Shown in pieces: positions 12,858-56,697 of a stretch of 56,697 nucleotides of DNA (the first letter of the stretch is position 1; each line of letters opens with the position of its first letter). Source of the DNA: an archaeon (GTDB lineage Archaea > Nanobdellota > Nanobdellia > Pacearchaeales > GW2011-AR1); NCBI GenBank assembly GCA_043817815.1, contig JBDRGM010000024.1, positions 1 through 56,697 of the forward strand, given 5' to 3'. The translations under genes and the position numbers were made by a program. The notes below the pieces were generated by a model. It worked only from the letters and a program-made list of their open reading frames with translations, was not told where the DNA came from and searched no databases.

Positions 12858-13649
12858 CTATTTTCCTAAACCTTTCTCATTTAATTCAGATATTTTTTTT
12901 GATTTATATTTTGATAAAAACTTAGCCACTTTTTCAAACAATTCAAAGTCATCCAAATATGCCATTGTTGCAGGATGGATCAATATTATACTTGGAACTT
13001 TATTTTTTTCATTTTCTTTCACTCTTTTCTTTAAAATTTCAAACCACTCTTCTACCTTTATCCTGCCTTTTGTGCATGAAGCAAAAGGGTCGCGATTTTC
13101 AGGTCTTAGTTCTCCATAGATAATTGTGTTTTGGTCTACAGGAATATTAATCGGTAAATGAATCATTCCCCCTGATTCAAAAGGCTTTTTATCTCCTAGT
13201 AAATCTGAAATATATAAAACCCCTTCTTTTTGTAAAATTTCAAAAGTTTTTCTATTAGAACCAAACGCATGAGTTCTCCATGAACTCATTTTCAAACCTT
13301 TCTTTTCAAAAGCTTCTTTTGTTTTTTTAATATCTTTTTTTTGAAACTCAGAAGAGCCATATATACAGCCATAAATTCTCCTGTAAATATAACTTTTAAT
13401 AATGTTCATTTTTCCGAAATTATCATAGGTATGCCCCCCTAATTGAATATCATATTCTAGCAATTCGTTTATCTCTTGAGATTCATTTTTATTATCTAAG
13501 CTTATGCCATTAACAAAAAGCGTGCAATTTAACCCATACTTTTTCAAAATATCAAGATACTTCTTAGATGCTTTAATTTCAGAACCTATTTTTTTTTGTT
13601 CCCATGTCTTCAATTTGTTTGAATGAACATCTCCTGTAATAAATATCAT
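12858..13649 (-). CDS. Putative polysaccharide deacetylase-like (CE4/NodB-like) protein, divergent
   Basis: 263 aa. FITGDVHS, LGGHTYDN and SWRTHAFGS sit in the order and spacing of CE4 motifs 1-3, but all are degenerate. Start overlaps the stop of the upstream gene (13646-13649). Confidence 0.35.
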   Translation of the reverse strand: MIFITGDVHSNKLKTWEQKKIGSEIKASKKYLDILKKYGLNCTLFVNGISLDNKNESQEINELLEYDIQLGGHTYDNFGKMNIIKSYIYRRIYGCIYGSSEFQKKDIKKTKEAFEKKGLKMSSWRTHAFGSNRKTFEILQKEGVLYISDLLGDKKPFESGGMIHLPINIPVDQNTIIYGELRPENRDPFASCTKGRIKVEEWFEILKKRVKENEKNKVPSIILIHPATMAYLDDFELFEKVAKFLSKYKSKKISELNEKGLGK

Positions 13650-16360
13650 TTTATATTTAAAATTCTCATCAAGCCTTCGTCTAAGCTAACTTTTGGCTCC
13701 CAGCCAAGAAATTCTCTCGCTTTATTTATATCTGCATAACTATTACTGTTTATAAAATTATTATCACTAAAATTTACTTGCTTTGTTCCTTTTACTATCT
13801 TTTCTACTAATTCCATAACACTATGACTCTCTCCTGAACCTACATTAAATATTTCAAAAGAATTTTTAGCAATGCTCTTTTTAATAGCATCTATCACGTC
13901 ATCAACATAAACGAGGTCTCTTTTTGGATAAGGATTACCTAAATTTATGCTTTCATTTTCTAATTGAGAAATTATGTCTGGAATTAAAAATCCTTTTTGT
14001 TGCCCTTTACCATAGGGATTAAAGAGCCTTAAGATAATTACATTTACCCCAAATTTTTTATTATAGTGTTCACATAATTTTTCAGCAATTGCTTTTGTTA
14101 ATCCATAGAATGATTTTGGATTAACAGGGGTGTCTTCTCTTATTTGGGAATCTGAATCTCCATACACTGATGCACTTGAAACAAAAACCAAACCATTCCC
14201 AGTCTTTTTGCAATACTCTAAAACATTCAAAGTACCATTAACATTAACATTAAACATCTCTAACTCATTGTCATTTTTTGTTAATGCAGCTAAGTGAATA
14301 ATCTTATCTGCAAATAATCCATCAAAATCACTCATATTTTCAATATTTTTTCCTTCATCTTTATCAAAAGTAATAATCTCATATTTCCTCCCTAATTCTT
14401 CAACTAATCTTTTCCCCAAAAATCCACTACTCCCTGTCACAATTATCCTCCCAAGTTTTTGCCATCTTGCTCTTGCTGCTTCAACAATCTCTTTGATTCT
14501 ATTTTTAGAGAGATTCTCTGTTTCAATTACCGGTTCACCTTTTTGCAGATAATCATCAAAATTTTTAGACAGAATTTTTATTCCATACATTTCAGGATTA
14601 TTCCAAATAGGACTTCCAGGAAAAGGAGTCAACGAATAAAAATCCGCAAAGCCTAATCCTTTATTTCTAAACTCTTCTGCAAATTCAATTGTTTTTCTCG
14701 CTGTTTCTTCAGTCTCTCCAGGCAAGCCAATAATAAAAAAACCTTTAACATGGAGATTATATCTACTAAATAATTCTATAGCATTTTTATTAGATTCAAC
14801 AGTTGTTCCTTTATTTATATTTTGTAAAATTTTATCATTCCCGCTTTCAATTCCCAATGCAACAGAGATGCATCCACTATTCTTTAGCCTCCTGACCACA
14901 TCCTCGTTAACATCAGTGCTCCTCATTTCAATTCTATACTTCATCTGTTCTTCTTTAAAAATATCTATAATTGTTTCAAAATGTTCTTTTTTCACAACAA
15001 AGTTTTCATCAAAAATATACACTGCTTCATAACCTTGCTGTTTTAATTTTTTCACCTCTTGCCTTACATTTTCAGGATTTCTAAATTGAACCTTTTTTTC
15101 ATGACTTGCGCAGAAAATACAACTAAAAGGACAACCTCTTGAAGTCATCATCGTAGCTGTTCTTAAATTTTTGCCTGTTTCATAATCTTGAGTATACATA
15201 GAATATTTATTTGAATCTAATTTATCTCTATCTGGAATAGCAAAATCATTTATATTAACTTCTTCAGAAATAATTCCTCTTACACCTTGTATTGCTTTAA
15301 TAGATCCAACCTCTCCATTCCCAACAATTATTGCATCTGCAATACCTTCAAAAGATTCTGGCATTGCAGTTACATGAGCTCCGCCAACCATTATTTTTGT
15401 TTTAGGAGAAATAATCTTTATTTTCTCCCCAAGTTCTCTCATTTGTTTATAACAAGGAGAACTTATTACACTTAATCCAATCCAGCCAGGCTTTTCTGAT
15501 TTAACTTTCTCTAAAAATACATTCACATCAAAATGATTCAAATCAAATATCTCATTATTTATATTATTCTTAGTTAGTGCACTTGAAATATACATAATCC
15601 CTAAGGGGGGCCTGTCTCCAGCATCACGCAAGAAATTTCTTTCATCTGGCGAGACTAAAAAAACGTTTATTTCTTCATTTATTCTGCATAATTCCTGCGC
15701 CTTTTCAAAATCATCAATTTTTCCAATGTCTATCCACTGACCTTCATGTAAAAATTCAACAACATTTCCCCCTTCTGAAATCACCTTCTTAACTAATTCA
15801 TCCATGTTATAAAATTCGTCTTCTGGAATATATCTTAGAACTCTTGGATTCAGCATATACATTCCAGTGCATATCTTAACTTCTATTGTGGGCTTTTCAG
15901 TCCAACCAGTAATTTTTTTATTTTCTGTTTCCATAACCCCATAATTTACAGGAACCTCAATCTTCCTCGTAACCAGACTAACATCTGCATTATTTTCTTT
16001 GTGATTTTTTTTCATCTCTTTTATATTCAAGTCTGTGATTAAATCCCCATTCATCACAAAAAAATCTTCATGAATTTTATCTTTAAGAAGTTTTAAAGGC
16101 CCTGCAGTGCCCAATGGCTTTGATTCTTTTAGGTAATTTATATTTAGGCCTATCTTTAACCCGTCGCCAAAAAGAGTTTCAAAAAGATAAGATTTGTAAT
16201 TTGTTGCTAAAGTAATATCTCTTATCCCTTGGTTCCTTAGATTCTCAAAAATTAATTCCAGTACTGGTTTGCCATTGATTGGCAATAATGGTTTAGGAAT
16301 TACTTGTGTGTATGGTCTTAGCCTTTTTCCCTCTCCCCCTGCTAAAATCACAGCCCTCAT
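13646..16360 (-). CDS. Three-domain fusion: sugar-phosphate nucleotidyltransferase + B12-binding radical SAM + extended-SDR NAD-dependent epimerase/dehydratase
   Basis: 904 aa. aa 1 to about 235 (about 16360-15656): MRAVILAGGEGKRLRPYTQVIPKPLLPING. aa about 240-640 (about 15643-14441): PPLGIMYISSAL..., VGGAHVT, TSRGCPFSCIFCAS. aa about 645-904 (about 14428-13649): RIIVTGSSGFLGKRLVEEL ... FYGLTKAIAEK (GxxGxxG plus YxxxK). Confidence 0.8.
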   Translation of the reverse strand: MRAVILAGGEGKRLRPYTQVIPKPLLPINGKPVLELIFENLRNQGIRDITLATNYKSYLFETLFGDGLKIGLNINYLKESKPLGTAGPLKLLKDKIHEDFFVMNGDLITDLNIKEMKKNHKENNADVSLVTRKIEVPVNYGVMETENKKITGWTEKPTIEVKICTGMYMLNPRVLRYIPEDEFYNMDELVKKVISEGGNVVEFLHEGQWIDIGKIDDFEKAQELCRINEEINVFLVSPDERNFLRDAGDRPPLGIMYISSALTKNNINNEIFDLNHFDVNVFLEKVKSEKPGWIGLSVISSPCYKQMRELGEKIKIISPKTKIMVGGAHVTAMPESFEGIADAIIVGNGEVGSIKAIQGVRGIISEEVNINDFAIPDRDKLDSNKYSMYTQDYETGKNLRTATMMTSRGCPFSCIFCASHEKKVQFRNPENVRQEVKKLKQQGYEAVYIFDENFVVKKEHFETIIDIFKEEQMKYRIEMRSTDVNEDVVRRLKNSGCISVALGIESGNDKILQNINKGTTVESNKNAIELFSRYNLHVKGFFIIGLPGETEETARKTIEFAEEFRNKGLGFADFYSLTPFPGSPIWNNPEMYGIKILSKNFDDYLQKGEPVIETENLSKNRIKEIVEAARARWQKLGRIIVTGSSGFLGKRLVEELGRKYEIITFDKDEGKNIENMSDFDGLFADKIIHLAALTKNDNELEMFNVNVNGTLNVLEYCKKTGNGLVFVSSASVYGDSDSQIREDTPVNPKSFYGLTKAIAEKLCEHYNKKFGVNVIILRLFNPYGKGQQKGFLIPDIISQLENESINLGNPYPKRDLVYVDDVIDAIKKSIAKNSFEIFNVGSGESHSVMELVEKIVKGTKQVNFSDNNFINSNSYADINKAREFLGWEPKVSLDEGLMRILNIK

Positions 16361-26737: not shown

Positions 26738-28363
26738 TTAAGGAATAAACCAATAATAATCTCCAGTATAACCAGCCTCACTAAACAACTTCTTCCAATC
26801 ATCAACATGCATATATGTTTCTGCAGTTAGATTCCAGTCAATCATTCTCCTCTTCTCCTCTTCATTTCTCCATGCGTCAACTGTGATGAACACATTCTTG
26901 CCAATCCTTTGCATCTCTTGCAAAGCCTTCTTACACTCACTTCTTGAAAGATTGTGAATAGTAGTTATAGAAATAACTAGATCAAATTCCTTATCCTTAA
27001 ATTTACTCAAATCTCTTGCATCACCAACACTCAAAAATTGTTTTACTTCTGGTTTAGAATTTTCAATCGCATAATCAGATATATCAATTCCCTCAACACT
27101 AATCCCTGGCATTGCTTCTTTAAGGTCATGCAACATAAATCCTTTTGCACATCCAACATCCAACACCTTGCTCTCAGAAGTAAGACCATAATGTTTAATC
27201 ATGTCCTGAACAACTCCTGAAAAAAATCTAGGATTATAACTATATCCTCCATAACCCTGCCTTCTTTCACCATCAAAAAACTTTCTCCCAAATTTCTTAG
27301 CAGTGACTATATCCTCCCATGTTTTCTCAACACCTTTTTTAGTAACATCTCGATTTGCCCTTGGATATTTTTCCATCAAATTTATTTCACCAGAAGTTTT
27401 TGTCGGTTCATGAATCCAAGAAGAATTATTCTGAACCCCTCCAATCAACTCTTTTTTAATCATATTAACAATATTTTCTGGAGAAAAACCCATGTTCTCA
27501 CAATTTTTTTTATATCCACAATATCTTCTTACATATTTTTCCCCAAGATTTATCGAAGAATATTTTACCTCTAAATTTTTAGAAGCCTTCAAAACATCAT
27601 CAAATATCCCCCCATGAATACTATGCTCTTCAATTACAAGACACTTTTTTGTTTTAGACAAACTTTTAATAACAATTTCATTATCAAATGGTTTTATTGT
27701 GTGAATGTAAATTATCTCCACATCTATTCCATCATTTTTCAACAACTCTACAGAATCTATCGCGTTTTTTAACTGAGGACCTGTAGCAATAATTGTAACA
27801 TCTTTGCCTTCTCTCACAAGAATCCCTTTTCCAAATTTAATCTGCTCGTCACTAAACTCAACACCATGTGAATTTGCAGGAACCCTAAAATAATTTGGAG
27901 TTCCTTTATCATAGATTTGTTTAAACAATAAATTAAATTCTTTTGGGCTTCCAGGATAAATTATTTGAGAACCCTCAACATTTTTTAAAAGTGCAAAATC
28001 ATCATAACAATGATGTGTAGAACCAAGTGTACCATAGTCAAATCCTGCTCCAATCGAAACAAGGTTGGCTTTTAATTTTTGATAACCAAAGCCAAGTTTA
28101 ATTTGTTCAAAAGACCTTTCAATTAAAAATGGGGCTATTGTGTGAATAACAGGGATAAATCCTATCTTAGATAATCCTGCAGCAATATTTGTCATTGTTG
28201 GTTCACAAACTCCAACATTGTAAAATCTTCCAGGACATGCTTGAGCAAAAGGCTGGAGAGCAAAATGACTTATATCTGCAACCATCGCAACAATTCTAGG
28301 GTCCTGCTTTCCAACTTCAAGTACTGTATCTGCAAATTCCTGTCTTATCTGTTTAGTTTCCAT
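26738..28363 (-). CDS. Fusion: transketolase C-terminal half (Pyr + C-terminal domains) + class I SAM methyltransferase
   Basis: 541 aa. aa 1 to about 310: IVAMVADISHFALQPFAQACPGRFYNVGVCEPTMTNIAAGLSKIGFIPV (transketolase Pyr domain). aa about 330-541: YGGYSYNPRFF...KVLDVGCAKGFMLHDL...DLVISITTIHNL (MT motifs I-III). Confidence 0.8.
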   Translation of the reverse strand: METKQIRQEFADTVLEVGKQDPRIVAMVADISHFALQPFAQACPGRFYNVGVCEPTMTNIAAGLSKIGFIPVIHTIAPFLIERSFEQIKLGFGYQKLKANLVSIGAGFDYGTLGSTHHCYDDFALLKNVEGSQIIYPGSPKEFNLLFKQIYDKGTPNYFRVPANSHGVEFSDEQIKFGKGILVREGKDVTIIATGPQLKNAIDSVELLKNDGIDVEIIYIHTIKPFDNEIVIKSLSKTKKCLVIEEHSIHGGIFDDVLKASKNLEVKYSSINLGEKYVRRYCGYKKNCENMGFSPENIVNMIKKELIGGVQNNSSWIHEPTKTSGEINLMEKYPRANRDVTKKGVEKTWEDIVTAKKFGRKFFDGERRQGYGGYSYNPRFFSGVVQDMIKHYGLTSESKVLDVGCAKGFMLHDLKEAMPGISVEGIDISDYAIENSKPEVKQFLSVGDARDLSKFKDKEFDLVISITTIHNLSRSECKKALQEMQRIGKNVFITVDAWRNEEEKRRMIDWNLTAETYMHVDDWKKLFSEAGYTGDYYWFIP

Positions 28364-29216: not shown

Positions 29217-30248
29217 ATGTTATCAAAAGTATATTTTTCTAAAAAATTTGATTCAGATTCAATTATAAATTTATTTGAAAGAGTTCATAATGATTTAAGT
29301 CAGATTACTCCCAACGAGAGAGTTGCGATTAAGGTTCATTTTGGAGAAAAAGGGAATACGCGATTTGTTTCTCCGAGATATATAAAACCAATAATTGATT
29401 CACTGAACAAATTCAACAGTAATTATTTCATTACAGATGCAAACACCTTGTATAAGGGAATGAGAGTTAATGCAACAGACCATAAGCAGGTTGCAAAAGA
29501 ACATGGGTTTTATGACTTAAATTCTGAAATAACAATCGCCGATGGGGAATTAGGAGAAAATGAAGAACTTGTAAAAATTCCTGGCAGAATTTTTTCAGAA
29601 GTTAAAATAGGAAAAGCAATTGCTGATTCAAGCACAATAATTGCTATATCCCATTTTAAAGGACACAATCTTTTTAGTTTTGCAGGGGCAATAAAAAATT
29701 TAGGCATGGGTTGTGCTTCAAAAGCAGGAAAACAATCCCAGCATTCAAATTTTAAACCTGCAGTAAATGAAAACTGTATACTTTGCAGAATGTGTATTAA
29801 TGAATGTCCTGTCAGCGCAATTATAGAAGAAAATTCAAAAGCAGTAATTAACCAATCCATCTGTATTGGATGTGCAAAGTGCATTGCAGTTTGTAATAAC
29901 AAAGCAATAAGAACACACTGGCTTGGAACCGAAGAAACACAAAAAAGAACAGCTGAATATGCTCTCGGGGCAATGAATAATAAAAAAGGAATTTTCTTTA
30001 ACTTCATAAATAATGTCACAGAACAATGTGATTGTGCAAAAGAGGACTCCAGAATAATCTGCAAAGACATCGGAATTGTAGCATCAACAGACCCTGTTGC
30101 CTGTGACAAAGCATCATATGATTTAGTAATTAAAGAATCGGGAAAGGATATATTTAAAGAATTACACGAATGTGATGGAACACTCTTATTTGATTATGCT
30201 CAGGATATTGGATTAGGTAAAAAAGAGTATGAGTTGGTTGAATTATGA
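29217..30248 (+). CDS. DUF362-like protein with an inserted 2x[4Fe-4S] ferredoxin domain
   Basis: 343 aa. VAIKVHFGEKGNTRFVSPRYIKPIID (DUF362-like N-terminus). Two CxxCxxCxxxC motifs: CILCRMCINECP and CIGCAKCIAVCN. Confidence 0.7.
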   Translation: MLSKVYFSKKFDSDSIINLFERVHNDLSQITPNERVAIKVHFGEKGNTRFVSPRYIKPIIDSLNKFNSNYFITDANTLYKGMRVNATDHKQVAKEHGFYDLNSEITIADGELGENEELVKIPGRIFSEVKIGKAIADSSTIIAISHFKGHNLFSFAGAIKNLGMGCASKAGKQSQHSNFKPAVNENCILCRMCINECPVSAIIEENSKAVINQSICIGCAKCIAVCNNKAIRTHWLGTEETQKRTAEYALGAMNNKKGIFFNFINNVTEQCDCAKEDSRIICKDIGIVASTDPVACDKASYDLVIKESGKDIFKELHECDGTLLFDYAQDIGLGKKEYELVEL

Positions 30249-31721
30249 TTCCCTATTAACTTTTCTTCTAAAGTTATATCTTATAATTTTTAGTCTATTG
30301 AATAAAAGTGATTCCATAGTCGGTGAAACTTTAAATATTCCTTTAGAAATTTTGGCAACAAATAAATCAGCACCATTCAAAATTACCTTCAAATAATTAA
30401 TCTTCATTGGACTAATCCTTTTGAATGTAAAATAATAATCTATCATTGCTTTCTGAGTCTCTTTTGGAAAATTGAAGAAATTTCTGTTAATTGTCTCAAA
30501 CATTTGTGAATCAAGAACTCTCGCAAAATATGTTCTTGACAATTCATAATCTTTCCCCTTCAAATACCATTTTTTAATATTAGGGTAATTATCATAGTAA
30601 ATAGTTGCAGGAATTGGAGTAAGTATTGAAAGATGCAAATCTTTTGTATATTTTGTTAGTTCTAAAAAAAGTTTCTTTTCCTCTTTTAATAATGCAGGTG
30701 TCTCAAAAGGAAAACCAACCATCATAAAAATAGAAATATTAATGTCATTCTTCTTCATTGACTTAAAAATTTTATGGGCGTTTTCTATTGGTTGCTCTTT
30801 GTTTATTTTCTTTAGTGAAAAAGAGGTTAGTCTTTCTAAACCAAAAATAACTTTATTAAATCCTGCTTTTTTCATTAATTTTATCAGATTATCATCAATA
30901 GGAAATCTTATTGTTGTTTGGCACGAAAGGGATATCTTTTTGTTTAAACCTGATTCTATCATCTTATTGCAAAAATCTCTTAATCTTTTTGGGAAAATAG
31001 TTATGTTATTGTCTGCAATAAATAAATCTCCAATTCCATATTTATTATATAAATCCTTAATATTAGAAAACATCCACCCCGCTGAAGCAACTCTTTTATC
31101 TTTTCTTTGAATTTTATCAGAACAAAATGTGCATTTAAAAGGACATCCTCTCTGTCCTGTCAAATCGAACAATCCTTGCTCTGTCAAGTCATAATCTTCA
31201 AGGTTAAACAAATCATAATTCACTATTGGTACATCATCAAGATTGTCTAAAACAGGAAACTCTTTTGCAAAATGAAAACTTCCATTTGATTTTTTATATG
31301 ATACACCTTTAACTTTATTAAGATTTTCTATATTTTCCAACAAAGGCAAAATAACTTTTTCCCCTTCCCTATTAATAACAATATCCACTCCATACTCCAA
31401 TGCTTCTTCGAAACAATGTTTCATATGTATTCCCCCTGCAATAACTTTCAATTTAGGGAACTCTCTTTTAACTTTCTTTATTTGCTCATAAGTTGGATAA
31501 GCATTATAAAGAGTAATTGAATAAGCAAGAACATCTGGCTTAAACTCTTCAATAATATTAATTATTTCCTCATCCTTATAAAATCTTAATTGTGAATTAT
31601 TATCTAAAATCTTTACTTTATGCCCCGCATCATGAACTATCGTCGCTATAATACCCATTCCATTATTCAATCTTGAATTTGATATTTGTCCTGACGAATT
31701 TCTAATAAAAAGAACTTTCAT
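30243..31721 (-). CDS. B12-binding-domain (class B) radical SAM enzyme
   Basis: 492 aa. MKVLFIRNS...GMGIIATIVHDAGHKVKILD, AGGIHMK. GQRGCPFKCTFCSD (CxxxCxxC). Confidence 0.85.
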   Translation of the reverse strand: MKVLFIRNSSGQISNSRLNNGMGIIATIVHDAGHKVKILDNNSQLRFYKDEEIINIIEEFKPDVLAYSITLYNAYPTYEQIKKVKREFPKLKVIAGGIHMKHCFEEALEYGVDIVINREGEKVILPLLENIENLNKVKGVSYKKSNGSFHFAKEFPVLDNLDDVPIVNYDLFNLEDYDLTEQGLFDLTGQRGCPFKCTFCSDKIQRKDKRVASAGWMFSNIKDLYNKYGIGDLFIADNNITIFPKRLRDFCNKMIESGLNKKISLSCQTTIRFPIDDNLIKLMKKAGFNKVIFGLERLTSFSLKKINKEQPIENAHKIFKSMKKNDINISIFMMVGFPFETPALLKEEKKLFLELTKYTKDLHLSILTPIPATIYYDNYPNIKKWYLKGKDYELSRTYFARVLDSQMFETINRNFFNFPKETQKAMIDYYFTFKRISPMKINYLKVILNGADLFVAKISKGIFKVSPTMESLLFNRLKIIRYNFRRKVNRES

Positions 31722-51440: not shown

Positions 51441-51461
51441 AACTGCTCTTTGAAATATTTT

Positions 51462-51665
51462 ATGCCAAAAAAGAAAGCAAGTGAAGTAAAAGAAGGAGAT
51501 GTTATAACTGTTTATGGAGAAAAGTCTGTTGTAAAAAAAGTTGAGACCTCTGGAAAAGGGATAAAGCAGGGCAAAGTAAAGTACAGAATAGAAGCAGAAA
51601 CCATAGGCAGTAAAAAAAATATAGTGGTGATAAGACTTGCAGAAGATTTAATTGAAACAGAATAA
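51462..51665 (+). CDS. Mini protein resembling the N-terminal (KOW/SH3-like) domain of aIF5A/EF-P
   Basis: 67 aa from the ATG at 51462 (the track start 51450 is a TTG). EVKEGDVITVYGEKSVVKKVETSGKGIKQGKVKYRIEAETIGSKK aligns by eye with the IF5A block xGxxVxIDGxPCxIVExSTSKTGKHGHAKxxxVGIDIFTGKK. No C-terminal OB domain is present. Confidence 0.35.
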   Translation: MPKKKASEVKEGDVITVYGEKSVVKKVETSGKGIKQGKVKYRIEAETIGSKKNIVVIRLAEDLIETE

Positions 51666-51666
51666 A

Positions 51667-52551
51667 ATGATTGATGTAATTATCACCTCTTACAAAGAAC
51701 CAGAATCCACCCTAAAGTGTGTTGGCTCATTTCTAAATCAAGACATAGAAGAAAAATTAAGAATCACTGTTATTGACCCTTTTCCTGAAGTTGAAAAATT
51801 ACTAAAAAACAAATACAAAAATAAAATTGATTTCTTCTTAGACCCTGGAGAAGGAAAAAGCTATGCGCTAAATATTTTCTTAGAAAACATCTATTCTCAA
51901 AACAAAGACGACTTAATCATTTTTACAGACGGAGATGTTTATGTCTCAGAAAATACAGTAAGTGAAATAGTAAACGCATTCAAAGACAAAAACGTAGGAT
52001 GTGTAACAGGCAAACCAGTTGCACTTGATTCAAAAGATAATATTATGGGATTCTGGAGCAACCTTGTCTTTGAAGGAATCCACAAAGTCAGAGAAAGACT
52101 TTCTGAACAGGAAAAATTCTTTGAATGTTCTGGATATTTATTTGGAATCCGAAATGGAGTTCTCAAAGGATTTCCAATGGAAGCTTCTGAAGACGGAATA
52201 ATTCCTTATTTGTTCTGGAAAGAAAGTTATAATATAAAGTACTTGCCAAAAGCAGAAGTTTATGTATTGAACAATTACAACTATAAAAAATGGCTCAAAC
52301 AAAAAATACGAAACATTAAAGGTCATGAGAATTATAACTCTCTTGCTCCAGACATGCCAAGAACAAAATCATTTGTCAATGAAATAAAACAAGGGACATT
52401 TTTTGCCTTAGCATATCCACAAACACTAAAACAAACTTACTGGACAATACTTTTATTTGGAGCACGACTTCATATCTACTTGAAAGCATTTTACGATATT
52501 AGAATAAAAAAGCGAAAATATGATGATGGTTGGAGGGGGAGTGATCATTGA
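51667..52551 (+). CDS. GT2-family (GT-A fold) glycosyltransferase
   Basis: MIDVIITSYKEPE (GT2 N-terminal strand), IFTDGDVYV (DxD). The ATG at 51667, 1 nt after the preceding stop, is preferred over the track start 51652. Confidence 0.75.
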   Translation: MIDVIITSYKEPESTLKCVGSFLNQDIEEKLRITVIDPFPEVEKLLKNKYKNKIDFFLDPGEGKSYALNIFLENIYSQNKDDLIIFTDGDVYVSENTVSEIVNAFKDKNVGCVTGKPVALDSKDNIMGFWSNLVFEGIHKVRERLSEQEKFFECSGYLFGIRNGVLKGFPMEASEDGIIPYLFWKESYNIKYLPKAEVYVLNNYNYKKWLKQKIRNIKGHENYNSLAPDMPRTKSFVNEIKQGTFFALAYPQTLKQTYWTILLFGARLHIYLKAFYDIRIKKRKYDDGWRGSDH

Positions 52552-52571
52552 AGGGTTTAACATCAGAATTT

Positions 52572-52594
52572 AACGAAGTCGTGAGCGTAGCGAA
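52572..52594 (+). repeat. Partial module copy (AACGAAG + GTGAGCGTAGCGAA)
   Basis: AACGAAG at 52572-52578 and GTGAGCGTAGCGAA at 52581-52594. The 14-mer is identical to those in copies A and B except for the variable 8th base (t/a/g). Confidence 0.55.
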
Positions 52595-52629
52595 CGATTT
52601 GAGGAACGGAGAGGTAAATATAAGGCGAC

Positions 52630-52643
52630 GTATTTATAAATAC
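52630..52643 (+). promoter_or_regulatory. TATA-like element inside a perfect 14-bp palindrome GTATTTATAAATAC
   Basis: TTTATAAA (52633-52640) ends 25 nt upstream of the ATG at 52666. There is no SD-like sequence, consistent with an archaeal leaderless transcript. Confidence 0.35.
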
Positions 52644-52665
52644 AAGAAGATCTCTAATGTAATAA

Positions 52666-53226
52666 ATGTCAAATATAATTAAAGTTCCCAATGTTGTAAT
52701 TGATTCAAGTGAACCTCCAACTAATCTTTCACCTAAATATTTTAATCGAGAAGCTCAAATTGAAAGAGAATATTTGAGATGTGCAAAAAAAGTGAAAAGA
52801 CTTTGGCCAGCAATTAGTTCAAACAAATTGCTAGGAATATTTTGTGGAGGTTCTCAAACTCATGGAGATTATTCAGATGATTCAGATGTTGATTTTGTAG
52901 TATATAGGGTGGGCAAACCAATGCAAATTCATGCTGAGTATTCTGGACTTGTTGATGGTCTAAAAGATGAGTTTGATATCTATGTTAGACATTGGTGGGG
53001 TGCTGAAGGATCAAAAGGAGGATCAATTGATTTTGTAATCACATCAATGCCATTTGGAATTCTATTTGATTTATTAGACTGTAGATGGAAACAGTCAAAC
53101 ATGTCTCGTAATCCTATGATAAAAGAGTGGAGTTCTTTATTAGATGATCTTCCACCAGATTACCAAACATTAAAACAAGACATGGGTTTTCTAAATTATT
53201 GTTTAAATCAACGAACAATACATTAA
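52666..53226 (+). CDS. Minimal Pol-beta-superfamily nucleotidyltransferase (MNT/KNTase-like)
   Basis: 186 aa. GIFCGGSQTHGDYSDDSDVDFVVY (GS-x(n)-DxD), then GGSIDFVITS (third acidic residue). No HEPN partner ORF is visible. Confidence 0.65.
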   Translation: MSNIIKVPNVVIDSSEPPTNLSPKYFNREAQIEREYLRCAKKVKRLWPAISSNKLLGIFCGGSQTHGDYSDDSDVDFVVYRVGKPMQIHAEYSGLVDGLKDEFDIYVRHWWGAEGSKGGSIDFVITSMPFGILFDLLDCRWKQSNMSRNPMIKEWSSLLDDLPPDYQTLKQDMGFLNYCLNQRTIH

Positions 53227-53351
53227 GCCGCCTTATATTTATTGAACATCGCGATTAAACAACCCATAGGGCTCGAGGTGTAGAAATTTTTCCCTCGTGA
53301 AACAGAGCTGGAAAAATTGCGGAACACTCGAGTGTTTTTGCGAAGCAAAAA

Positions 53352-53465
53352 TATGGGAAAAATGTGTCCCGAAAAAAGAGGGTGAGCGAAGCGAAAACAT
53401 TTTTCTGTTTAATCTGCTGTTCCCAGACCCGAAGGGCACGAGCTGAAACACAAAGTTTCCTCGTG
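53352..53465 (+). repeat. G+C-rich hairpin module, copy A
   Basis: TGGG + stem GAAAAATGT (53357-53365) / ACATTTTTC (53397-53405) enclosing GTGAGCGAAGCGAA, then TGTTTAA. This is followed by hairpin CACGAG-CT-GAAAC-acaaa-GTTTC-CTCGTG (53437-53465). Confidence 0.7.
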
Positions 53466-53590
53466 AGTTTAAAATTTCATTTTAGGGTGGGGGAGGAGGA
53501 TGGTTGTTTCCGACGACCAAAAAATTAGAGAGAAAAGCCTGCCCTTTTTGTTTCTTTTTTCTAAAAAGAAAATGAGGGGTTCTTTTGTTT

Positions 53591-54088
53591 TTATTTTTTC
53601 TTTAAAATACTTTTTGGAATAACTAATGGATATATCCATCTAAGAATATAGTAAAAACCAATAACAATTATAACTGAAAGAATTAAATTTAACGGAGTTG
53701 AGATTAGACCCAAAATTAGACTCAGAACTCCTAATAAAAAAATGCTTAGATTAGAAAATATTTTTTTATAAAAAGGGATACTATTTTCTAAATTTTCATA
53801 TTCTTGTCTTAATTCTTCTTTATATTTTATTTTCATAATTTCAAAATCTTCGGTTTTTTTGAAATCTTCCCAATACTCATTGAATCTTTCATCGGAAACA
53901 CCATATTCCTCTTGATATTTCTCAGACATATTGTTTCTAGTATTATCTATCATATTTTGATAAGAAGATTCAAGATAATTTTCTAAATATCTTTCTTGCT
54001 GAATGTTGTAATTCCATAAAGATATAATCAAAAATAAAACTAAAAATCCTAAGATAAAGTAAGTCTTTCTAAATGCCTTTTCATTCAT
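53591..54088 (-). CDS. Hypothetical membrane protein (1 N-terminal + 2 C-terminal predicted TM helices, acidic Tyr/Glu-rich middle)
   Basis: 165 aa. TYFILGFLVLFLIISLW, then IFSNLSIFLLGVLSLILGLI and LILSVIIVIGFYYIL. Overlaps the upstream ORF by 4 nt. Confidence 0.45.
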   Translation of the reverse strand: MNEKAFRKTYFILGFLVLFLIISLWNYNIQQERYLENYLESSYQNMIDNTRNNMSEKYQEEYGVSDERFNEYWEDFKKTEDFEIMKIKYKEELRQEYENLENSIPFYKKIFSNLSIFLLGVLSLILGLISTPLNLILSVIIVIGFYYILRWIYPLVIPKSILKKK

Positions 54089-54552
54089 TTTAATTTTCCT
54101 TCAAAAGTAATTTTAATTTCATTTTTCTCTTTTGGGTTTTTTGGCTTTGGGTTTTTTGAAATAAATTTGTTTATCTCTTCATAAATTTTACTTTTTTGTT
54201 CTCCAGAGAGATTTGCTAAACCAGCAATATTTTTTACATCTACCGCTTGCGTTTGTATGACTCCTTTTTCAGTTAGTTCAAATTTTAAAGTAAATTTTTC
54301 AGATTTCTCCTCTGAAAAATTATAAATTACCTTTCCTTTTAATTTTGTCTTTCCTATTGCTTCTCTGTTTTCTTTTGCTTGTTTTCTTCTTTCTCGTTCA
54401 AATTTGTTAGCTTGTTCTAATGCTTCTTGCATATTTGAAGTTTTGACAGGCTCCTCTTTCATGCCTGCTTTTTTAAGATAATAGTCTCTATTCTTATCTT
54501 CCTGGCTTTTGAATTTCTTTTTCTTACCAAATATCTTTTTTAAAAAGTTCAT
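54085..54552 (-). CDS. Hypothetical basic, Lys-rich protein
   Basis: The ATG at 54552 (MNFLKKIFGKKKK...) is preferred over the track start 54594. A TATA-like TTTTATAT lies about 20 nt upstream on the minus strand. No recognisable domain. Confidence 0.4.
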   Translation of the reverse strand: MNFLKKIFGKKKKFKSQEDKNRDYYLKKAGMKEEPVKTSNMQEALEQANKFERERRKQAKENREAIGKTKLKGKVIYNFSEEKSEKFTLKFELTEKGVIQTQAVDVKNIAGLANLSGEQKSKIYEEINKFISKNPKPKNPKEKNEIKITFEGKLK

Positions 54553-54597
54553 AAAATAAATAGAAAAAGAGAATATAAAAAAGTATCTGTGCATTAA

Positions 54598-54606
54598 TTA
54601 TATAAA
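54598..54606 (+). promoter_or_regulatory. TATA-like element TTATATAAA upstream of the small 2-TM ORF
   Basis: 22 nt separate the element from the ATG at 54629. It lies in a 76-nt divergent intergenic region shared with ORF 54085..54552. Confidence 0.3.
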
Positions 54607-54628
54607 GATTGAAACTTCTATAATTAAA

Positions 54629-54847
54629 ATGGCAAAAAAAGATTTACCAACAATAAAACAAAAAAATATGTTTTGGTGTGGTGCATTAGTGGGTCTCGTG
54701 GGAGGTGTATTTGGAGGATTATTTGCAAATTCATTTTATGATTATCTTAAGGATTTATTGGGAGGAGGGATTACAACAATTTTGTCAGGTTTGGTTTTTT
54801 TGGGAATTATTTATTTCGCATCTAAACAAATTACAAAGATAATCTAA
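54629..54847 (+). CDS. Small Gly-rich two-TM membrane protein
   Basis: 72 aa. MFWCGALVGLVGGVFGGLFA and ITTILSGLVFLGIIYFA. Its TATA-like element ends 22 nt upstream of the ATG. Confidence 0.4.
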   Translation: MAKKDLPTIKQKNMFWCGALVGLVGGVFGGLFANSFYDYLKDLLGGGITTILSGLVFLGIIYFASKQITKII

Positions 54848-55157
54848 CTAATTCTCGAAGTGAGACAGGCAAATTGTCCGTAGGACTAAGAACCCCTCAA
54901 AGTAAATGAAAAATTTGGGTGTAACGAAGTGAAACCTTTTACCCCTTGTTATACAAAGTGCGAAGCATTTTGTTGGTTTTCTCGTCGGTCGGGTAAAAGA
55001 AGTTTTTCTCTGAAAACAAAGTTTTCAGCTATCTGTCCGAAGGACGCAGGATTTTTTCTCCTATCTCGGGTGGGCAAAAAATGAAATTTTAAATTTGGTC
55101 GGCTTTGCCGACGCTGGGAACATCGGGCTTAAACGAAGTTGCGACCGTAGGGAGCAA

Positions 55158-55195
55158 TTTGGGAAAATGCCGAGCTGAGGCATTTTCCGTTTAAG
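55158..55195 (+). repeat. G+C-rich hairpin module, short copy C
   Basis: TTTG + stem GGAAAATGCC (55162-55171), loop GAGCTGA, GGCATTTTCC (55179-55188), then GTTTAAG. It has the same flanks as stem 1 of copies A and B but lacks the internal insert. A GTGAGC-CGAAG-GCGAA variant lies at 55211-55226. Confidence 0.6.
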
Positions 55196-55280
55196 CCCTG
55201 TTAAGTGAGGGTGAGCCGAAGGCGAAAGCGCAGCGTCCCCCAAGCGACTGAAAGGAGTGCAGAGTTCCTGTGGTCGCCCC

Positions 55281-56048
55281 CTATCTAATAATTGATTCTC
55301 GTATAACATCTAAAATAGAATTAAGAGCTTGTTTTTTCTGTTCGGCAGAGGCAATTCTGTAATCAGATTCTGAATAGCGTTTATCCTTTACATCAAGTAA
55401 AGCAACTGCTGGAATTCCAAAAAGTCTGCTACATGCCAATACAGAAGCACTTTCATATTCTCCAGAATCACAATCTTGTTCACCAATTTCAGCAAGAGAA
55501 ATCTTCCACCACATTGCTTCATCCATCAACTGAGTTGGTTCTGTAAAATCAGGTAAATATCCTGGTGTGATACAGCAGTAAACTTTACTTGGTCTAAAAT
55601 CTAAGGATTTCTCTTGCGCAATACCTAGAACTCTTTCCAGCAGTTGCGGATTTGGTTGAGTGACATCATTAACGCCTCTGCCCCTGGCATTTTGATAAAT
55701 GCTTTGTTCAAAGCTATCGGGTGAAAATGTGTCTCTTGCAAAAACAAGATTGCCGGGCTCTAATTCAGAATTCCTGAAAGCATATACACTACCTACAAAG
55801 TATACTTCTGGTTTTTGGTCGGTTGGTAAATATTCTGAGGCATATTCAATCATGGCTTGCCCAGCAACAGCTCCAGAATATCCAGTAAACAATACTTTGG
55901 TTAAACCATCCAATCCCTCATACAATGAGTCATTAAAATTGCCATGCCAAAACCGACCATCAGATTTTGGAACTTTGTGCAAATCTAATTTTTCAGTAAA
56001 TGCTTTCAGGACTTTTTCAGTTGTTTTTGGACTAATTATCAAAGACAT
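55281..56048 (-). CDS. Nucleoside phosphorylase/nucleosidase superfamily protein (PNP_UDP_1-like)
   Basis: VLFTGYSGAVAGQAMIEYA, VYFVGSVYAF and DCDSGEYESASVLACSRLFGIPAVALLDVKD resemble the phosphate-loop, core and D/E-M/Y-E-S/T-A blocks of MTA/purine/uridine phosphorylase-type enzymes. The ATG at 56048 is preferred over the TTG at 56063. Visibly more G+C-rich than the rest of the window. Confidence 0.6.
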   Translation of the reverse strand: MSLIISPKTTEKVLKAFTEKLDLHKVPKSDGRFWHGNFNDSLYEGLDGLTKVLFTGYSGAVAGQAMIEYASEYLPTDQKPEVYFVGSVYAFRNSELEPGNLVFARDTFSPDSFEQSIYQNARGRGVNDVTQPNPQLLERVLGIAQEKSLDFRPSKVYCCITPGYLPDFTEPTQLMDEAMWWKISLAEIGEQDCDSGEYESASVLACSRLFGIPAVALLDVKDKRYSESDYRIASAEQKKQALNSILDVIRESIIR

Positions 56049-56070
56049 AATAAAGAGAATCAATTGTAAT

Positions 56071-56078
56071 TATATAAA
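56071..56078 (-). promoter_or_regulatory. TATA-like element TTTATATA upstream of the PNP-like gene
   Basis: On the minus strand, 22 nt separate the element from the ATG at 56048. It lies inside the IR bracket. Confidence 0.35.
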
Positions 56079-56153
56079 CATTATTGTTCTTGGGGCGACC
56101 ACAGGAATTGCACATAACAATTAGTTAAACAAAGTTTTTTCTGAAAGAAAAAA

Positions 56154-56269
56154 TTTGGGAAAATTCTGTAGCCCTAAAGGGCGTGAGCGGAGCGAAGGAA
56201 TTTTCTGTTTAACGGATGTTCGCCGACCGAACGAAGTGAGGCACGAGCTGACGCTACAGCGTCCTCGTG
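56154..56269 (+). repeat. G+C-rich hairpin module, copy B
   Basis: TTTGGG + stem GAAAATTC (56159-56166) / GAATTTTC (56198-56205) enclosing GTGAGCGGAGCGAA, then TGTTTAA. This is followed by hairpin CACGAG-CT-GACGC-taca-GCGTC-CTCGTG (56242-56269). Same order and strand as copy A. Confidence 0.7.
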
Positions 56270-56302
56270 AGAAAAAATCTGTTCACATCCGATTTTACGC
56301 GT

Positions 56303-56346
56303 AATTGTCGACATTTTATTTTTTAATTATTTTGTCGTCGACAATT
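56303..56346. repeat. Perfect 10-bp stem hairpin AATTGTCGAC ... GTCGACAATT with a 24-nt A/T-only loop
   Basis: Arms at 56303-56312 and 56337-56346. Pairing extends by CG after one mismatch. Confidence 0.6.
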
Positions 56347-56471
56347 TCGTTTAATCAGCGAGGTTATGCGACAATTTTAATTTCGCATTTGAGTGTTAAA
56401 CGAAGCTTAAAATCTTAAAGGATGTGAATTTACCGACGGAGAAGGCAGATTTTTATTTTGGCGAACACGAA

Positions 56472-56497
56472 GTTATCATAAATAAACTTATGATAAC
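56472..56497. repeat. Perfect 10-bp stem hairpin GTTATCATAA-ataaac-TTATGATAAC
   Basis: Arms at 56472-56481 and 56488-56497. It lies about 90 nt downstream of the stop of the partial minus-strand gene, beyond oligo-T tracts. Confidence 0.55.
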
Positions 56498-56585
56498 ATT
56501 CCAAAGGAGGGCATAAAAAGATGAATTATTAATAAAAGAAATAGGAAAAAACATTAAAAAAAATAAAAATAAAAATAAAATAATC

Positions 56586-56697
56586 TTAGTTTTTAATTAC
56601 TGCTAGGACTACGCTAAGCAATGTAGTTATAACAACTACCCAACCGACAATCATTGCCAGAGTTGCTCCGCCAAGCCAGGATGGTAGTGTTAGTGGT
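56586..56697 (-). CDS. Partial CDS: C-terminal hydrophobic anchor of a protein whose N-terminus lies beyond the right window edge
   Basis: Own minus-strand translation: ...PLTLPSWLGGATLAMIVGWVVVITTLLSVVLAVIKN stop (TAA = tta at 56586-56588), followed by long oligo-T/A tracts. Not in the ORF track. Confidence 0.35.
   Translation of the reverse strand, partial: PLTLPSWLGGATLAMIVGWVVVITTLLSVVLAVIKN

Follow-up and report, generated by a model that had tools for sequence, protein, structure and literature searches.

What might explain why the spacers near one end of this archaeal DNA (the window, the whole stretch of 56,697 nt that was analysed) contain homologous, G+C-rich modules whose stems keep pairing through different sequences? 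A preliminary description had recognised three such copies, A, B and C, and had proposed either a structured RNA or processing signal, or single-stranded DNA recombination sites with a REP/attC-like logic that could organise the cassette-like units. All three copies are present, with every string where it had been placed, and a fourth, truncated copy lies at the outer end of the series. The statement that the window has no other G+C-rich non-coding DNA holds approximately: 80-nt windows with at least 50% GC occur in the inter-ORF spacers at three places, 53364-53445, most of 55090-55310, and 56154-56304. The modules are probably parts of attC-like sites delimiting gene cassettes in an Xer-type integron-like array that occupies 52555-56498 of the window. 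Of the two readings first proposed, the recombination-site branch gains support from co-oriented arrays, complementary unit ends, AAC/GTT breakpoints and a tyrosine recombinase gene at the array end, and the RNA branch is not favoured.

Anatomy of the sites and of the window array

The modules are fragments of larger elements, 84-183 nt when complete, which were delimited with an element finder (Table 1). Each element is an imperfect palindrome. It opens with N6-AAC and a bulge of 2-3 nt; a closing stem of 10 bp (..TTAAAC/GTTTAA..) then encloses two to five internal hairpins, and GTT-N6 follows. The bulge, on one arm, separates the outer R box (N6-AAC/GTT-N6) from the inner 10-bp box, and together the boxes close the hairpin junction. 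The GTTTAA flank of stem 1 is half of this longer closing stem, with its TTAAAC partner 60-150 nt upstream; stem 1 itself is the last internal hairpin of a site, and stem 2 opens the adjoining cassette end-region as its first hairpin and extends the palindrome outward. Copies A and B are real as modules, but their limits are not those of a unit, since both straddle a cassette junction: each joins the end of one element (its last hairpin, L' and R') to the first hairpin of the cassette next to it.

Table 1. Features of the candidate cassette array, in window coordinates
Feature	Position	Strand	Content and basis
Truncated element	52555-52614	+	Array end far from the recombinase side; model R1 26 bits, E 2e-4, left half alone aligns; GTTTAAC (AAC 52559-52561), ATC, L''-like AGAATTTAAC 52565-52574; hairpin 1 AAGTCG 52576-52581 with CGATTT 52595-52600, loop TGAGCGTAGCGAA; lacks hairpin 2, L' and R'; begins 4 nt past the stop codon of a GT2 gene (51652-52551)
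Cassette body 4	52615-53244	-	Farthest from the recombinase side; ORF 52666-53226 (+), nucleotidyltransferase, NTP_transf_2 (Pfam match); brackets TAAATATAAGGCGAC 52615-52629 and GCCGCCTTATATTTA 53227-53241 (inverted repeat read in the sequence)
Element A	53245-53421	+	177 nt, long type (element finder, DNA fold); AAC 53245-53247, ATC, L'' GCGATTAAAC 53251-53260, four internal hairpins, L' GTTTAATCTGC 53407-53417, GTT 53419-53421
Stem 1, copy A	53355-53406		One of the four internal hairpins of element A; GGGAAAAATGT 53355-53365 paired with ACATTTTTCT 53397-53406
Cassette body 3	53422-55118	-	CCCAG after GTT, CTGGG before AAC; ORFs 53591-54088 (-), 54085-54594 (-), 54629-54847 (+)
End-regions of body 3	53422-53599, 54849-55118		Conserved, structured; the first holds stem 2, copy A
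Stem 2, copy A	53437-53465		CACGAG 53437-53442 with CTCGTG 53460-53465; inner helix GAAAC/GTTTC
Inverted repeat of body 3, 16 bp	53468-53483, 55078-55093		TTTAAAATTTCATTTT with AAAATGAAATTTTAAA
Element C	55119-55202	+	84 nt, short type; R1 110 bits, E 1.5e-27; AAC, ATC, GGGCTTAAAC, hairpin 1 AAGTTGC/GCAATTT, hairpin 2 GGGAAAATGCC/GGCATTTTCC (copy C), GTTTAAGCCC, T, GTT
Cassette body 2	55203-56115	-	ORF 55281-56048 (-), 255 aa, protein family match sought and none found; brackets TTCCTGTGGTCGCCCC 55264-55279 and GGGGCGACCACAGGAA 56092-56107; outer ends GTT-AAGTG and CACAT-AAC match imperfectly
Element B	56116-56220	+	105 nt; R1 40.8 bits, E 1.5e-8; DNA fold; AAC 56116-56118, L'' GTTAAAC, hairpin 1 GTTTTTTC-TGAAA-GAAAAAAT, hairpin 2 (stem 1, copy B), L' GTTTAAC 56207-56213, GTT 56218-56220
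Cassette body 1	56221-56463	.	About 245 nt, no ORF; CGCC after GTT, GGCG before AAC; inverted L'-R'-like module GTTTAATCAGCGAGGTT 56349-56365
Stem 2, copy B	56242-56269		Within cassette body 1; arms 56242-56247 and 56264-56269, inner helix GACGC/GCGTC
Terminal site, attI-like	56464-56498	+	AAC 56464-56466, ACG, 11-6-11 palindrome AGTTATCATAA-ATAAAC-TTATGATAACA 56471-56498, arm symmetry 10/11

The string GTGAGCGNAGCGAA occurs exactly three times in the window (52581, 53382 and 56183) against 0.22 expected, with 0 of 100 shuffles reaching three, and the composite TGGGAAAA-N10-40-TTTTCYGTTTAA has three occurrences against 0.00 expected. AAC and GTT are invariant in the 16-sequence alignment, but their presence in the finder set and in the set used for the pair test is not independent evidence, because the finder required them and the pair-test search located them. 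The attC consensus RYYYAAC/GTTRRRY is matched only sometimes, as by GCCTAAC with GTTAAAT in locus L062, and the window has GTTCCCA. Matches to the covariance model R1 are confined to 52554-52651, 55114-55207 and 56111-56222, with none in the other 52 kb. The best reading of 52555-56498 is a four-cassette array with a terminal site and no recombinase gene, akin to an attC cluster lacking an integrase.

A family of folded sites with strand bias

Of the 117 loci returned by a pattern scan of GTDB genomes, about 95 are true matches, and most of these come from Woese-, Pace- and Nanoarchaeota MAGs. Searching 584 kb of related loci with the covariance model R1 gives 129 copies (E <= 1e-3), co-oriented within loci and sometimes dense (seven copies in 8 kb in L038, six in L057). 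Non-coding DNA of other MAGs matches whole spacers of the window at 92-98% identity, and the ORFs between these spacers differ. Element A is 92-97% identical to non-coding DNA in L050, L031, L092 and L100; the end-regions of cassette body 3 enclose different cargo in L050, L031 and L073; and copies of element C, 95-100% identical, occur in 15 or more other MAGs.

Does selection act on the fold? Both stems had been said to co-vary between copies, and they do so across the family. For stem 1, among 45 distinct copies, 96.2% of cells are paired, 57 cells are changed on both sides against 18.3 +/- 3.8 after shuffling (0/500), and the covariation score is 0.367, compared with at most 0.074 for slid partners. 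For stem 2 (10 distinct related copies) all cells are paired (100%), with 14 double changes against 3.5 +/- 1.4 shuffled (0/500) and a score of 0.392, slid partners giving at most 0.089. In the RNAalifold consensus of 16 short elements, 14 of the 32 pairs show compensatory change. The + strand gives the more stable fold in 54/56 elements with RNA parameters and in 47/56 with DNA parameters, it carries 97 GNA triloop hairpins against three on the - strand, and the longest ORF lies opposite the folding strand in 43/56 units. C-GNA-G triloops are a hallmark of DNA hairpins. Compensatory changes in the internal hairpins, the folding asymmetry between strands and the GNA loops together argue for selection on a single strand. 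The junction of a circularised cassette 3 (55120 joined to 53247) folds at -70.0 kcal/mol (z = -9.3), compared with -49.9 for a wrong partner and -51.7 kcal/mol for the linear context.

Could that single strand be RNA? The elements might act as + strand transcripts, either structured non-coding RNAs or signals such as terminators, processing sites or insulators, and owe their conservation to regulation of cassette expression. Covariation and tolerance of G-U pairs are as compatible with RNA as with DNA, several loops are GNRA-like (GAAA, GCAA), and T-rich runs in the cassette end-regions could be archaeal terminators. We consider this very improbable nonetheless: the folding strand is antisense to the longest ORF in those 43 units, the triloops are of DNA type, and the complementary cassette ends, the AAC/GTT breakpoints and the recombinase gene at the array end would be left unexplained. 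Nor does any Rfam family match. Comparison of the whole window with Rfam 15 at gathering thresholds gave no matches, and relaxing to E <= 1 for 52400-56697 gave only two chance-level matches, of 29 and 22 bits, far below cutoffs.

Cassette ends and homology breakpoints

The DNA between elements opens with GTT-N6 and closes with a complementary N6-AAC. In 18/54 consecutive pairs, the 4-6 nt after GTT (mostly 6 nt) are the reverse complement of those before the AAC of the next element, against a control rate of 5.2% (binomial p = 1.1e-10); in the window the pair is GTTCCCAG (53419-53426) with CTGGGAAC (55114-55121). Such complementary GTT-N6/N6-AAC ends are an integron cassette signature; that exact N6 complementarity is found in only a third of consecutive pairs counts against an attC-like reading.

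Homology between loci also breaks at the triplets: AAC marks its start in 178 cases and GTT its stop in 178, and it runs more than 30 nt past GTT 138 times and past AAC only 14 times. Across the window, L050, L073 and L031, one cassette end (..GACGCTGGGAAC) adjoins four different element bodies. Cassette body 1 is 98.7% and 95% identical to L103, with divergence exactly after GGCGAAC, and in L066 and L137 its homologous sequence lies upstream of the recombinase gene. Element bodies are themselves mosaic, with a further class of breakpoints at the junction of hairpin 1 and hairpin 2; a single crossover point is insufficient as an explanation of this, which too weighs against an attC-like reading.

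High-copy, near-identical, palindromic and intergenic sequences built of mosaic modules and present in many genomes could also be selfish REP/BIME- or MITE-type repeats that a transposase, or a REP-associated tyrosine transposase, had spread and that happened to build up between accessory genes. Such repeats would be expected to scatter, but the elements form one co-oriented array per locus beside a recombinase gene, and the 52 kb of the window outside the array are free of them. Their flanks show cassette-type complementarity rather than target-site duplications, and, judged by the list of recurrent protein families with an uncharacterised ~190-aa family set aside, no other nuclease, transposase or HUH-type family stands out in the loci. 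We rate this as the least probable explanation.

The recombinase and the terminal site

A tyrosine recombinase gene lies at one array end in 11/12 related loci, the exception, L068, having the opposite arrangement. This exception, and a window with no recombinase gene of its own (none by IntI1 tblastn, the window ending at 56697), are points against an attC-like reading. The same IntI1 search finds the gene in 9-10 of about 95 loci, within 1-4 kb of an element. Recurrent protein families of the loci include the ~190-aa family, a methyltransferase, a radical SAM protein and the tyrosine recombinase, which is one of the two most recurrent. Of long contigs picked by recombinase homology alone, 3/3 carry R1 elements upstream on the same strand and none downstream of the recombinase gene, where housekeeping genes begin. 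Cassette ORFs lie on the strand opposite the recombinase gene in 43/56 units.

What kind of recombinase is it? The proteins of related loci (266-284 aa) score 205-229 bits in two stretches against TIGR02249 (cutoff 265) and 216-237 bits against NF040815 (XerA_Arch; cutoff 220). Their best solved relative is P. abyssi XerA (4a8e, E = 4e-47), and comparison with VchIntIA (2a3v) leaves residues 176-247 of IntI4 unmatched; these proteins lack the additional domain that IntI has near patch III. By these comparisons the enzyme is of Xer type, closest to archaeal XerA and not a canonical IntI. The missing insert, scores below integron-integrase cutoffs and XerA as best match count against an attC-like reading, and the enzyme may simply be the chromosome-dimer resolvase of the host.

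An affinity to XerA would also suit double-stranded Xer-type sites bounding modules, like Acinetobacter pdif or the Xer-exploiting elements stacked at dif. The recombinase would then act on duplex ..GTTTAAGCCC-N-GTTA-N6 in alternating orientation, and the hairpins would be incidental or have another role. Both ends of every element are indeed the same sequence of roughly 20 bp, inverted, and the terminal site of the window is an 11-6-11 palindrome with dif architecture. Such duplex sites are an unlikely explanation, one that is opposed by compensatory changes in the hairpins between the putative sites, by strand-asymmetric folding and by the GNA loops. Duplex integration would give direct overlap repeats, but the cassette ends are inverted N6 repeats. 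The dif-like palindrome is found upstream of no recombinase gene in a search of the related loci; its sole other match among them, in L081, is not placed relative to one. In the relatives the terminal site (N6-AAC, 3-4 nt, hairpin) lies directly upstream of the recombinase gene.

Discussion

How might attC-like sites with an Xer-type enzyme work? The + strand of the window would fold as single-stranded DNA; integron convention would make it the bottom strand, as the majority of cassette genes are on its complement and are directed away from the recombinase. This enzyme would recognise the folded stem and exchange strands at the AAC/GTT triplet. Cassettes would leave as circles, in which the two ends pair and complete the R box, and the circles would re-insert at the terminal site beside the recombinase gene. 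This reading is comparative, and recombination products, circles and empty sites were not observed.

It is quite possible, if not yet probable, that DPANN archaea, and possibly CPR bacteria with which they share habitats, carry a distinct and very common integron-like capture lineage, in which an XerA-type recombinase without the IntI domain acts on cloverleaf-like folded single-stranded DNA sites. If so, the platform would be a living intermediate between Xer/dif and integrons that standard integron finders might miss. It might also let cassettes pass between the two domains of ultra-small symbionts; the 84-nt element is 95-100% identical in MAGs labelled archaeal and MAGs labelled bacterial. 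No description of this DPANN site family was found in the literature searched.

Several features are shared with integrons. Integron attC sites are also imperfect palindromes in which AAC and GTT form the closing triplets, a second box is paired further in, and only one arm has unpaired bases; they too form co-oriented arrays separating short, mostly accessory ORFs that mostly point away from the recombinase gene. In both systems the start of each cassette is the complement of the R'' flank at the end of that cassette, the triplets are where homology breaks, and one end of the array has a tyrosine recombinase gene and, next to it, a terminal site. In both, too, the better-folding strand is the one opposite the coding strand. 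Some integron clusters lack an integrase gene, as the window does.

Other features differ. The recombinase, at about 275 aa, is without the insert specific to IntI. The R box measures 9-10 bp (N6 + AAC) rather than 7 bp; inner and outer boxes share one polarity (..TAAC then ..TTAAAC) where attC has an L box of inverted polarity, and there is no symmetric unpaired central spacer, both of which tell against a canonical attC. In place of one variable stem in a site of 57-141 bp there is a junction of two to five hairpins in 84-183 nt. Long conserved, structured end-regions around variable cargo, not a feature of bacterial integron cassettes, are a further point against. The nine archaeal attCs in Data S9 of Ghaly et al. 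2022 (PMC9668308) are canonical; GTTTAA and TTAAAC are absent from all of them.

The Xer/dif system shares with the present loci an Xer-family recombinase partner, and the window terminal site has one palindrome resembling the 28-bp dif architecture of two 11-nt arms and a 6-nt spacer (PMC8371274); such a palindrome is not conserved in the other loci here. Unlike Xer-exploiting elements, which are few and phage- or island-sized, the arrays consist of many short cassettes, each with its own palindromic site. Precedents for a folded single strand presenting a duplex target, for one-strand exchange and for tandem stacking beside a chromosomal site exist among Xer systems, and CTX phage exploits Xer to integrate as a single strand at dif. 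In Acinetobacter plasmids, pdif sites of Xer type and alternating orientation bound small gene modules that are shuffled between replicons. The bounding of small modules by alternating sites is similar here, but the sites are not of the 28-bp XerC/D type, inverted site pairs enclose conserved, covarying hairpin junctions, and module ends are complementary N6 repeats. The present sites belong to a widespread DPANN family that is paired with a simpler, Xer-type recombinase.

Elements and their setting

The window has a G+C content of ~32%, its main coding content is one large cluster of sugar-nucleotide and surface-glycan enzymes (1-52000), and it holds at least six B12-binding radical SAM paralogues. 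On the 3' side of the stop codon of the GT2 glycosyltransferase gene the character of the sequence shifts: five short ORFs follow on both strands, one of which has a family match (nucleotidyltransferase), and the spacers between them measure 110-450 nt and reach 45-55% G+C. No database record was found for the 260-aa or the 255-aa product of 55281-56063. At the other end of the GT2 gene, a 71-aa small ORF (MKYFMPKKKASEVKEGDVITVYGEK..., 51450-51665) overlaps the gene start by 14 nt; it has no match in Pfam, and presumably resembles the N-terminal domain of the translation factor aIF5A or EF-P.

What are the structured modules that fill these spacers? Every string quoted for them in the preliminary description was found where it had been placed, GTGAGCGNAGCGAA occurring three times in the window against 0.22 expected and the composite stem-1 pattern three times against 0.00. 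The GTTTAA that had been taken as a mere flank of stem 1 is present, but it pairs with a TTAAAC found upstream of every stem 1, and a second pair, AAC with GTT, lies further out. Folding with DNA parameters gave this same closing-box architecture, an inner L box (TTAAAC/GTTTAA) within an outer R box (AAC/GTT), in all three copies A, B and C. Copies A and B exist as modules, but their limits had been misplaced: both cross a GTT triplet into the adjoining unit, whose first hairpin is what had been called stem 2. The alternative that TTAAAC/GTTTAA is itself the canonical attC R''/R' was ruled out, because the variable flanks start outside the additional AAC/GTT pair. Elsewhere in the window, AACATCTGGCTTAAAC (31530-31545) exactly reproduces the R''-L'' half that elements have in two related loci, L032 and L070. 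It sits within a B12-binding radical SAM gene (30243-31721, minus strand) and has neither a partner half nor hairpins nearby; being unpartnered and inside a gene it is probably a chance match, though a 16-nt identity is unusual.

Coordinates of elements, genes and matched regions in the window
Feature	Position	Description
Element A	53245-53421	Four internal hairpins
Element B	56116-56220	
Element C	55119-55202	AAC, ATC, GGGCTTAAAC, hairpin 1, hairpin 2, GTTTAAGCCC, T, GTT
Half-element	52555-52614	Left half only
Terminal site	56464-56498	
Region matched in related loci	55119-55208	L017, L019, L032, L038, L041, L042, L053, L062, L071, L114, L118, L119
Fusion gene	1525-4017	Nucleotidyltransferase fused to TPP enzyme
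Sulfatase	8165-9598	
Fusion gene	13646-16360	Nucleotidyltransferase, B12 radical SAM and epimerase (three-part)
Fusion gene	26738-28363	Transketolase-methyltransferase
GT2 glycosyltransferase gene	51652-52551	

Covariation and distribution

The compensatory changes claimed for both stems are borne out by relatives. Among 45 distinct copies of stem 1, 96.2% of cells pair and variation affects both partners in four of the ten pairs; double-changed cells total 57, where shuffles give 18.3 +/- 3.8 (0/500), and the covariation score is 0.367, against at most 0.074 with slid partners. Copies of stem 2 were collected by requiring complementary outer arms and leaving the inner helix unconstrained; in the 10 distinct copies, which carry seven different inner helices, 100% of cells pair, with 14 double changes compared with 3.5 +/- 1.4 in shuffles (0/500). 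Compensatory change is seen in 14 of the 32 pairs in the consensus of 16 distinct short elements, whose hairpin 1 has an invariant G-T pair.

A scan with the stem-1 pattern, covering one genome per GTDB species, returned at least 117 loci. About 95 of those listed are true matches that share the surrounding architecture, mainly in MAGs of Woesearchaeota, Pacearchaeota and Nanoarchaeota, other labels among the matches listed being Patescibacteria, Dojkabacteria, Saccharibacteria, Gracilibacteria and Methanosarcinales. About 22 of the listed genome matches were set aside as chance, such as one in a conserved Flavobacterium gene, as were all 15 matches in viral contigs; both sets fall in coding DNA. 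The window spacers recur whole, at 92-98% identity, in non-coding DNA of these MAGs, with unrelated ORFs in between; conservation covers 53242-53599, 54849-55140, 55119-55244 and 56107-56300. The 84-nt element type of copy C (matches to 55119-55208) is 95-100% identical in MAGs labelled as archaea and as CPR bacteria (Patescibacteria, Peregrinibacteria, Dojkabacteria, Saccharibacteria and Gracilibacteria), which reflects either cross-domain cassette exchange or binning errors. When the whole window was compared with Rfam, as had been suggested, no known RNA family matched at gathering thresholds, and at E <= 1 the part 52400-56697 gave two chance-level matches only. We found no prior description of the element family in the literature, of which our coverage was incomplete, and the family looks far commoner in DPANN archaea than previously reported archaeal integrons.

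Cassette ends and the point of exchange

A covariance model built from the short elements (R1) scores element C at 110 bits, element B at 41 bits and the half-element at 26 bits, and finds nothing significant in the other 52 kb of the window. In the related loci R1 yielded 129 copies (E <= 1e-3), co-oriented within each locus and 0.2-3 kb apart. In 18 of 54 consecutive pairs the hexamer right after GTT is the reverse complement of the nucleotides before the next element's AAC, compared with 5.2% in controls (p = 1.1e-10), and complementary cassette ends are also seen in a smaller set of consecutive elements; the window provides an example in GTTCCCAG (53419-53426) and CTGGGAAC (55114-55121). 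Integron cassettes leave ends of this kind when a circle with one palindromic site integrates through a crossover within the outer box. A cassette would circularise by joining its own end to its own site, for instance ...GACGCTGGGAA to CATCGCGATTAAAC.... The circle made in silico by joining 55120 to 53247 folds at -70.0 kcal/mol (z = -9.3), compared with -49.9 kcal/mol for a wrong partner and -51.7 kcal/mol for the linear context, and the fold pairs the R box plus a further 16-17 bp of the cassette end-regions.

All-against-all comparison places breakpoints at the outer box. At 178 ends homology starts at AAC, most often on the first A, and at another 178 it stops at GTT, most often one base past the triplet; it runs more than 30 nt past GTT 138 times and more than 30 nt past AAC 14 times. 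This asymmetry suggests that what moves is the element together with the DNA on its GTT side, and that the point of exchange is at AAC. One cassette end, ...GACGCTGGGAAC, is joined to four different element bodies in four genomes, and the homology between the window and the related locus L103 ends exactly after GGCGAAC. An additional class of breakpoints at the junction of hairpin 1 and hairpin 2 indicates that element bodies are mosaics, which may have arisen by homologous exchange between near-identical repeats.

The region 53600-54848 is flanked by two conserved end-regions, and three related loci (L050, L031 and L073) have equivalent end-regions around different genes. These end-regions (53422-53599 and 54849-55118 in the window) repeat the module order of the element body: a CCC-GNA-GGG hairpin, a C(A/T)CGAG hairpin, a long A/T stem, TTTGG and a short hairpin; the long stem carries the cargo genes in its loop. 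In this way the cassette 53422-55118 resembles an enlarged version of the site, a nesting explained by no current model. L103, which begins within element B and belongs to a different genome that has only non-coding DNA in common with the window, is 95-99% identical to the window over the ORF-less last cassette, apart from a 62-nt stretch present only in the window (56302-56363, against L103 151-157) that holds the palindrome GTCGACATTTTATTTTTTAATTATTTTGTCGTCGAC.

Partner recombinase and terminal site

A tblastn search with an IntI1 query located a tyrosine recombinase gene 1-4 kb from an element in 9-10 of the ~95 loci listed, making it the joint most recurrent protein family in the related loci. 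The protein has 266-284 aa, RKHRHY catalytic residues and a C-terminal SPLD like that of integron integrases. It scores 216-237 bits with the NCBIfam XerA_Arch model (cutoff 220) and 205-229 bits, in two pieces and under the cutoff of 265, with the integron-integrase model. Among solved structures it matches P. abyssi XerA best, along its whole length (E = 4e-47); the alignment with VchIntIA is in two pieces and leaves residues 176-247 of VchIntIA, the IntI-specific region, unmatched. At E <= 1e-30 the recombinase has more than 4,600 close homologues, under generic names, and it may also serve as chromosome resolvase.

In all three long contigs that were selected by recombinase protein similarity alone, R1 elements (one, three and four copies) lie upstream of the recombinase gene on the same strand, and none lies downstream, where housekeeping genes begin (aminoacyl-tRNA synthetases, ABCE1, eIF2-gamma and primase). 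The layout of array and recombinase, in which the gene heads the array and is directed away from it, is shared by 11 of 12 loci, these contigs included; L068 is the exception. Directly 5' of the gene is a terminal site composed of N6-AAC, 3-4 nt and a hairpin, without a GTT partner. The window has such a site, and tblastn detects no recombinase gene in the remaining 200 nt past it or elsewhere in the window.

The stretch 56471-56498, at the end of the array that in relatives holds the recombinase gene, is built like an Xer dif site: it forms a near-perfect 11-6-11 palindrome, AGTTATCATAA-ATAAAC-TTATGATAACA. As a general feature the palindrome was rejected, there being a single other example in all related loci. 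As frequent as the recombinase is a ~190-aa protein family (MKKENLKRVSVYIDGANFYYG...), present in L044 and seven other loci (eight in total), which by its sequence looks like an NYN/LabA-like nuclease; it could be cargo that many cassettes carry, or a partner in function. In L071, a group II intron reverse transcriptase/maturase gene (3370-4371) lies within an 8-kb stretch that holds two elements; in bacterial integrons, attC sites serve as targets of group IIC introns.

Folding strand and the nature of the elements

Among 56 distinct elements, the strand that corresponds to the plus strand of the window folds more stably than the opposite one in 54 under RNA parameters and in 47 under DNA parameters (p ~1e-9 to 1e-10). 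Hairpins with three-base GNA loops, mostly closed by C-G, number 97 on the plus strand versus 3 on the minus strand, and all four middle bases are present. Loops of the GNA type are unusually stable in DNA, as in mini-hairpins such as d(GCGAAGC). The longest ORF of the unit is on the strand opposite to the folding strand in 43 of 56 units. An orientation considered first, with crossover at the GTT after L' and the site belonging to the left-hand ORF, was dropped on linkage asymmetry, recombinase position and ORF strand; the same three observations make the minus strand of the window the conventional top (coding) strand. By analogy with integrons, the better-folding strand would then be the bottom strand, which in bacterial integrons is the recombinogenic one.

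A structured RNA, or an RNA signal, is compatible with the folding taken by itself but is a highly improbable identity for the elements: its action would need to be antisense to the majority of cassette genes, and it leaves the complementary cassette ends, the breakpoints and the linkage to a recombinase unexplained. Those three lines of evidence support the other branch of the preliminary description, a recombination site resembling attC. On sequence comparison, there is a good probability that the spacer modules are parts of attC-like recombination sites delimiting cassettes in an integron-like array.

Comparison with known systems

Integrons are the main known machine for the capture and shuffling of single genes. 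The best reading of the system described here is an integron-like cassette platform of DPANN archaea that would use a Xer-type recombinase and cloverleaf-like sites. CTX phage is a precedent for Xer recombination of a folded single strand. If confirmed, the platform would explain how genome-reduced symbionts retain a variable accessory gene pool, would offer a testable model in which integron recombination evolves from Xer recombination of folded DNA, and would provide engineering with a new set of structure-specific recombination sites. That copy C is nearly identical in bacterial- and archaeal-labelled MAGs would bear on cross-domain gene flow, if binning errors are excluded.

The logic follows that of integrons: the folded sites are bounded by triplets, the cassette ends are shifted, the array is polar and has the recombinase and the insertion site on one side, and clusters that lack an integrase occur. 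The window terminal site has dif architecture (PMC8371274), which is not general among related loci. A 2022 study was the first to report integrons in Archaea; it found them in 75 genomes, with attC sites of canonical type, and counted six IntI genes, whose products carry the IntI-specific domain (PMC9668308). Unlike the elements here, the nine archaeal attC sites of Data S9 in that report contain neither GTTTAA nor TTAAAC (PMC9668308). Two defining features that were examined place the system outside the integron family proper. The present recombinase lacks the IntI-specific domain, the hallmark used to recognise integron integrases, and the interior of the site differs from that of known attC: inner and outer boxes share one polarity, there is no symmetric spacer, and multiple hairpins make up the interior.
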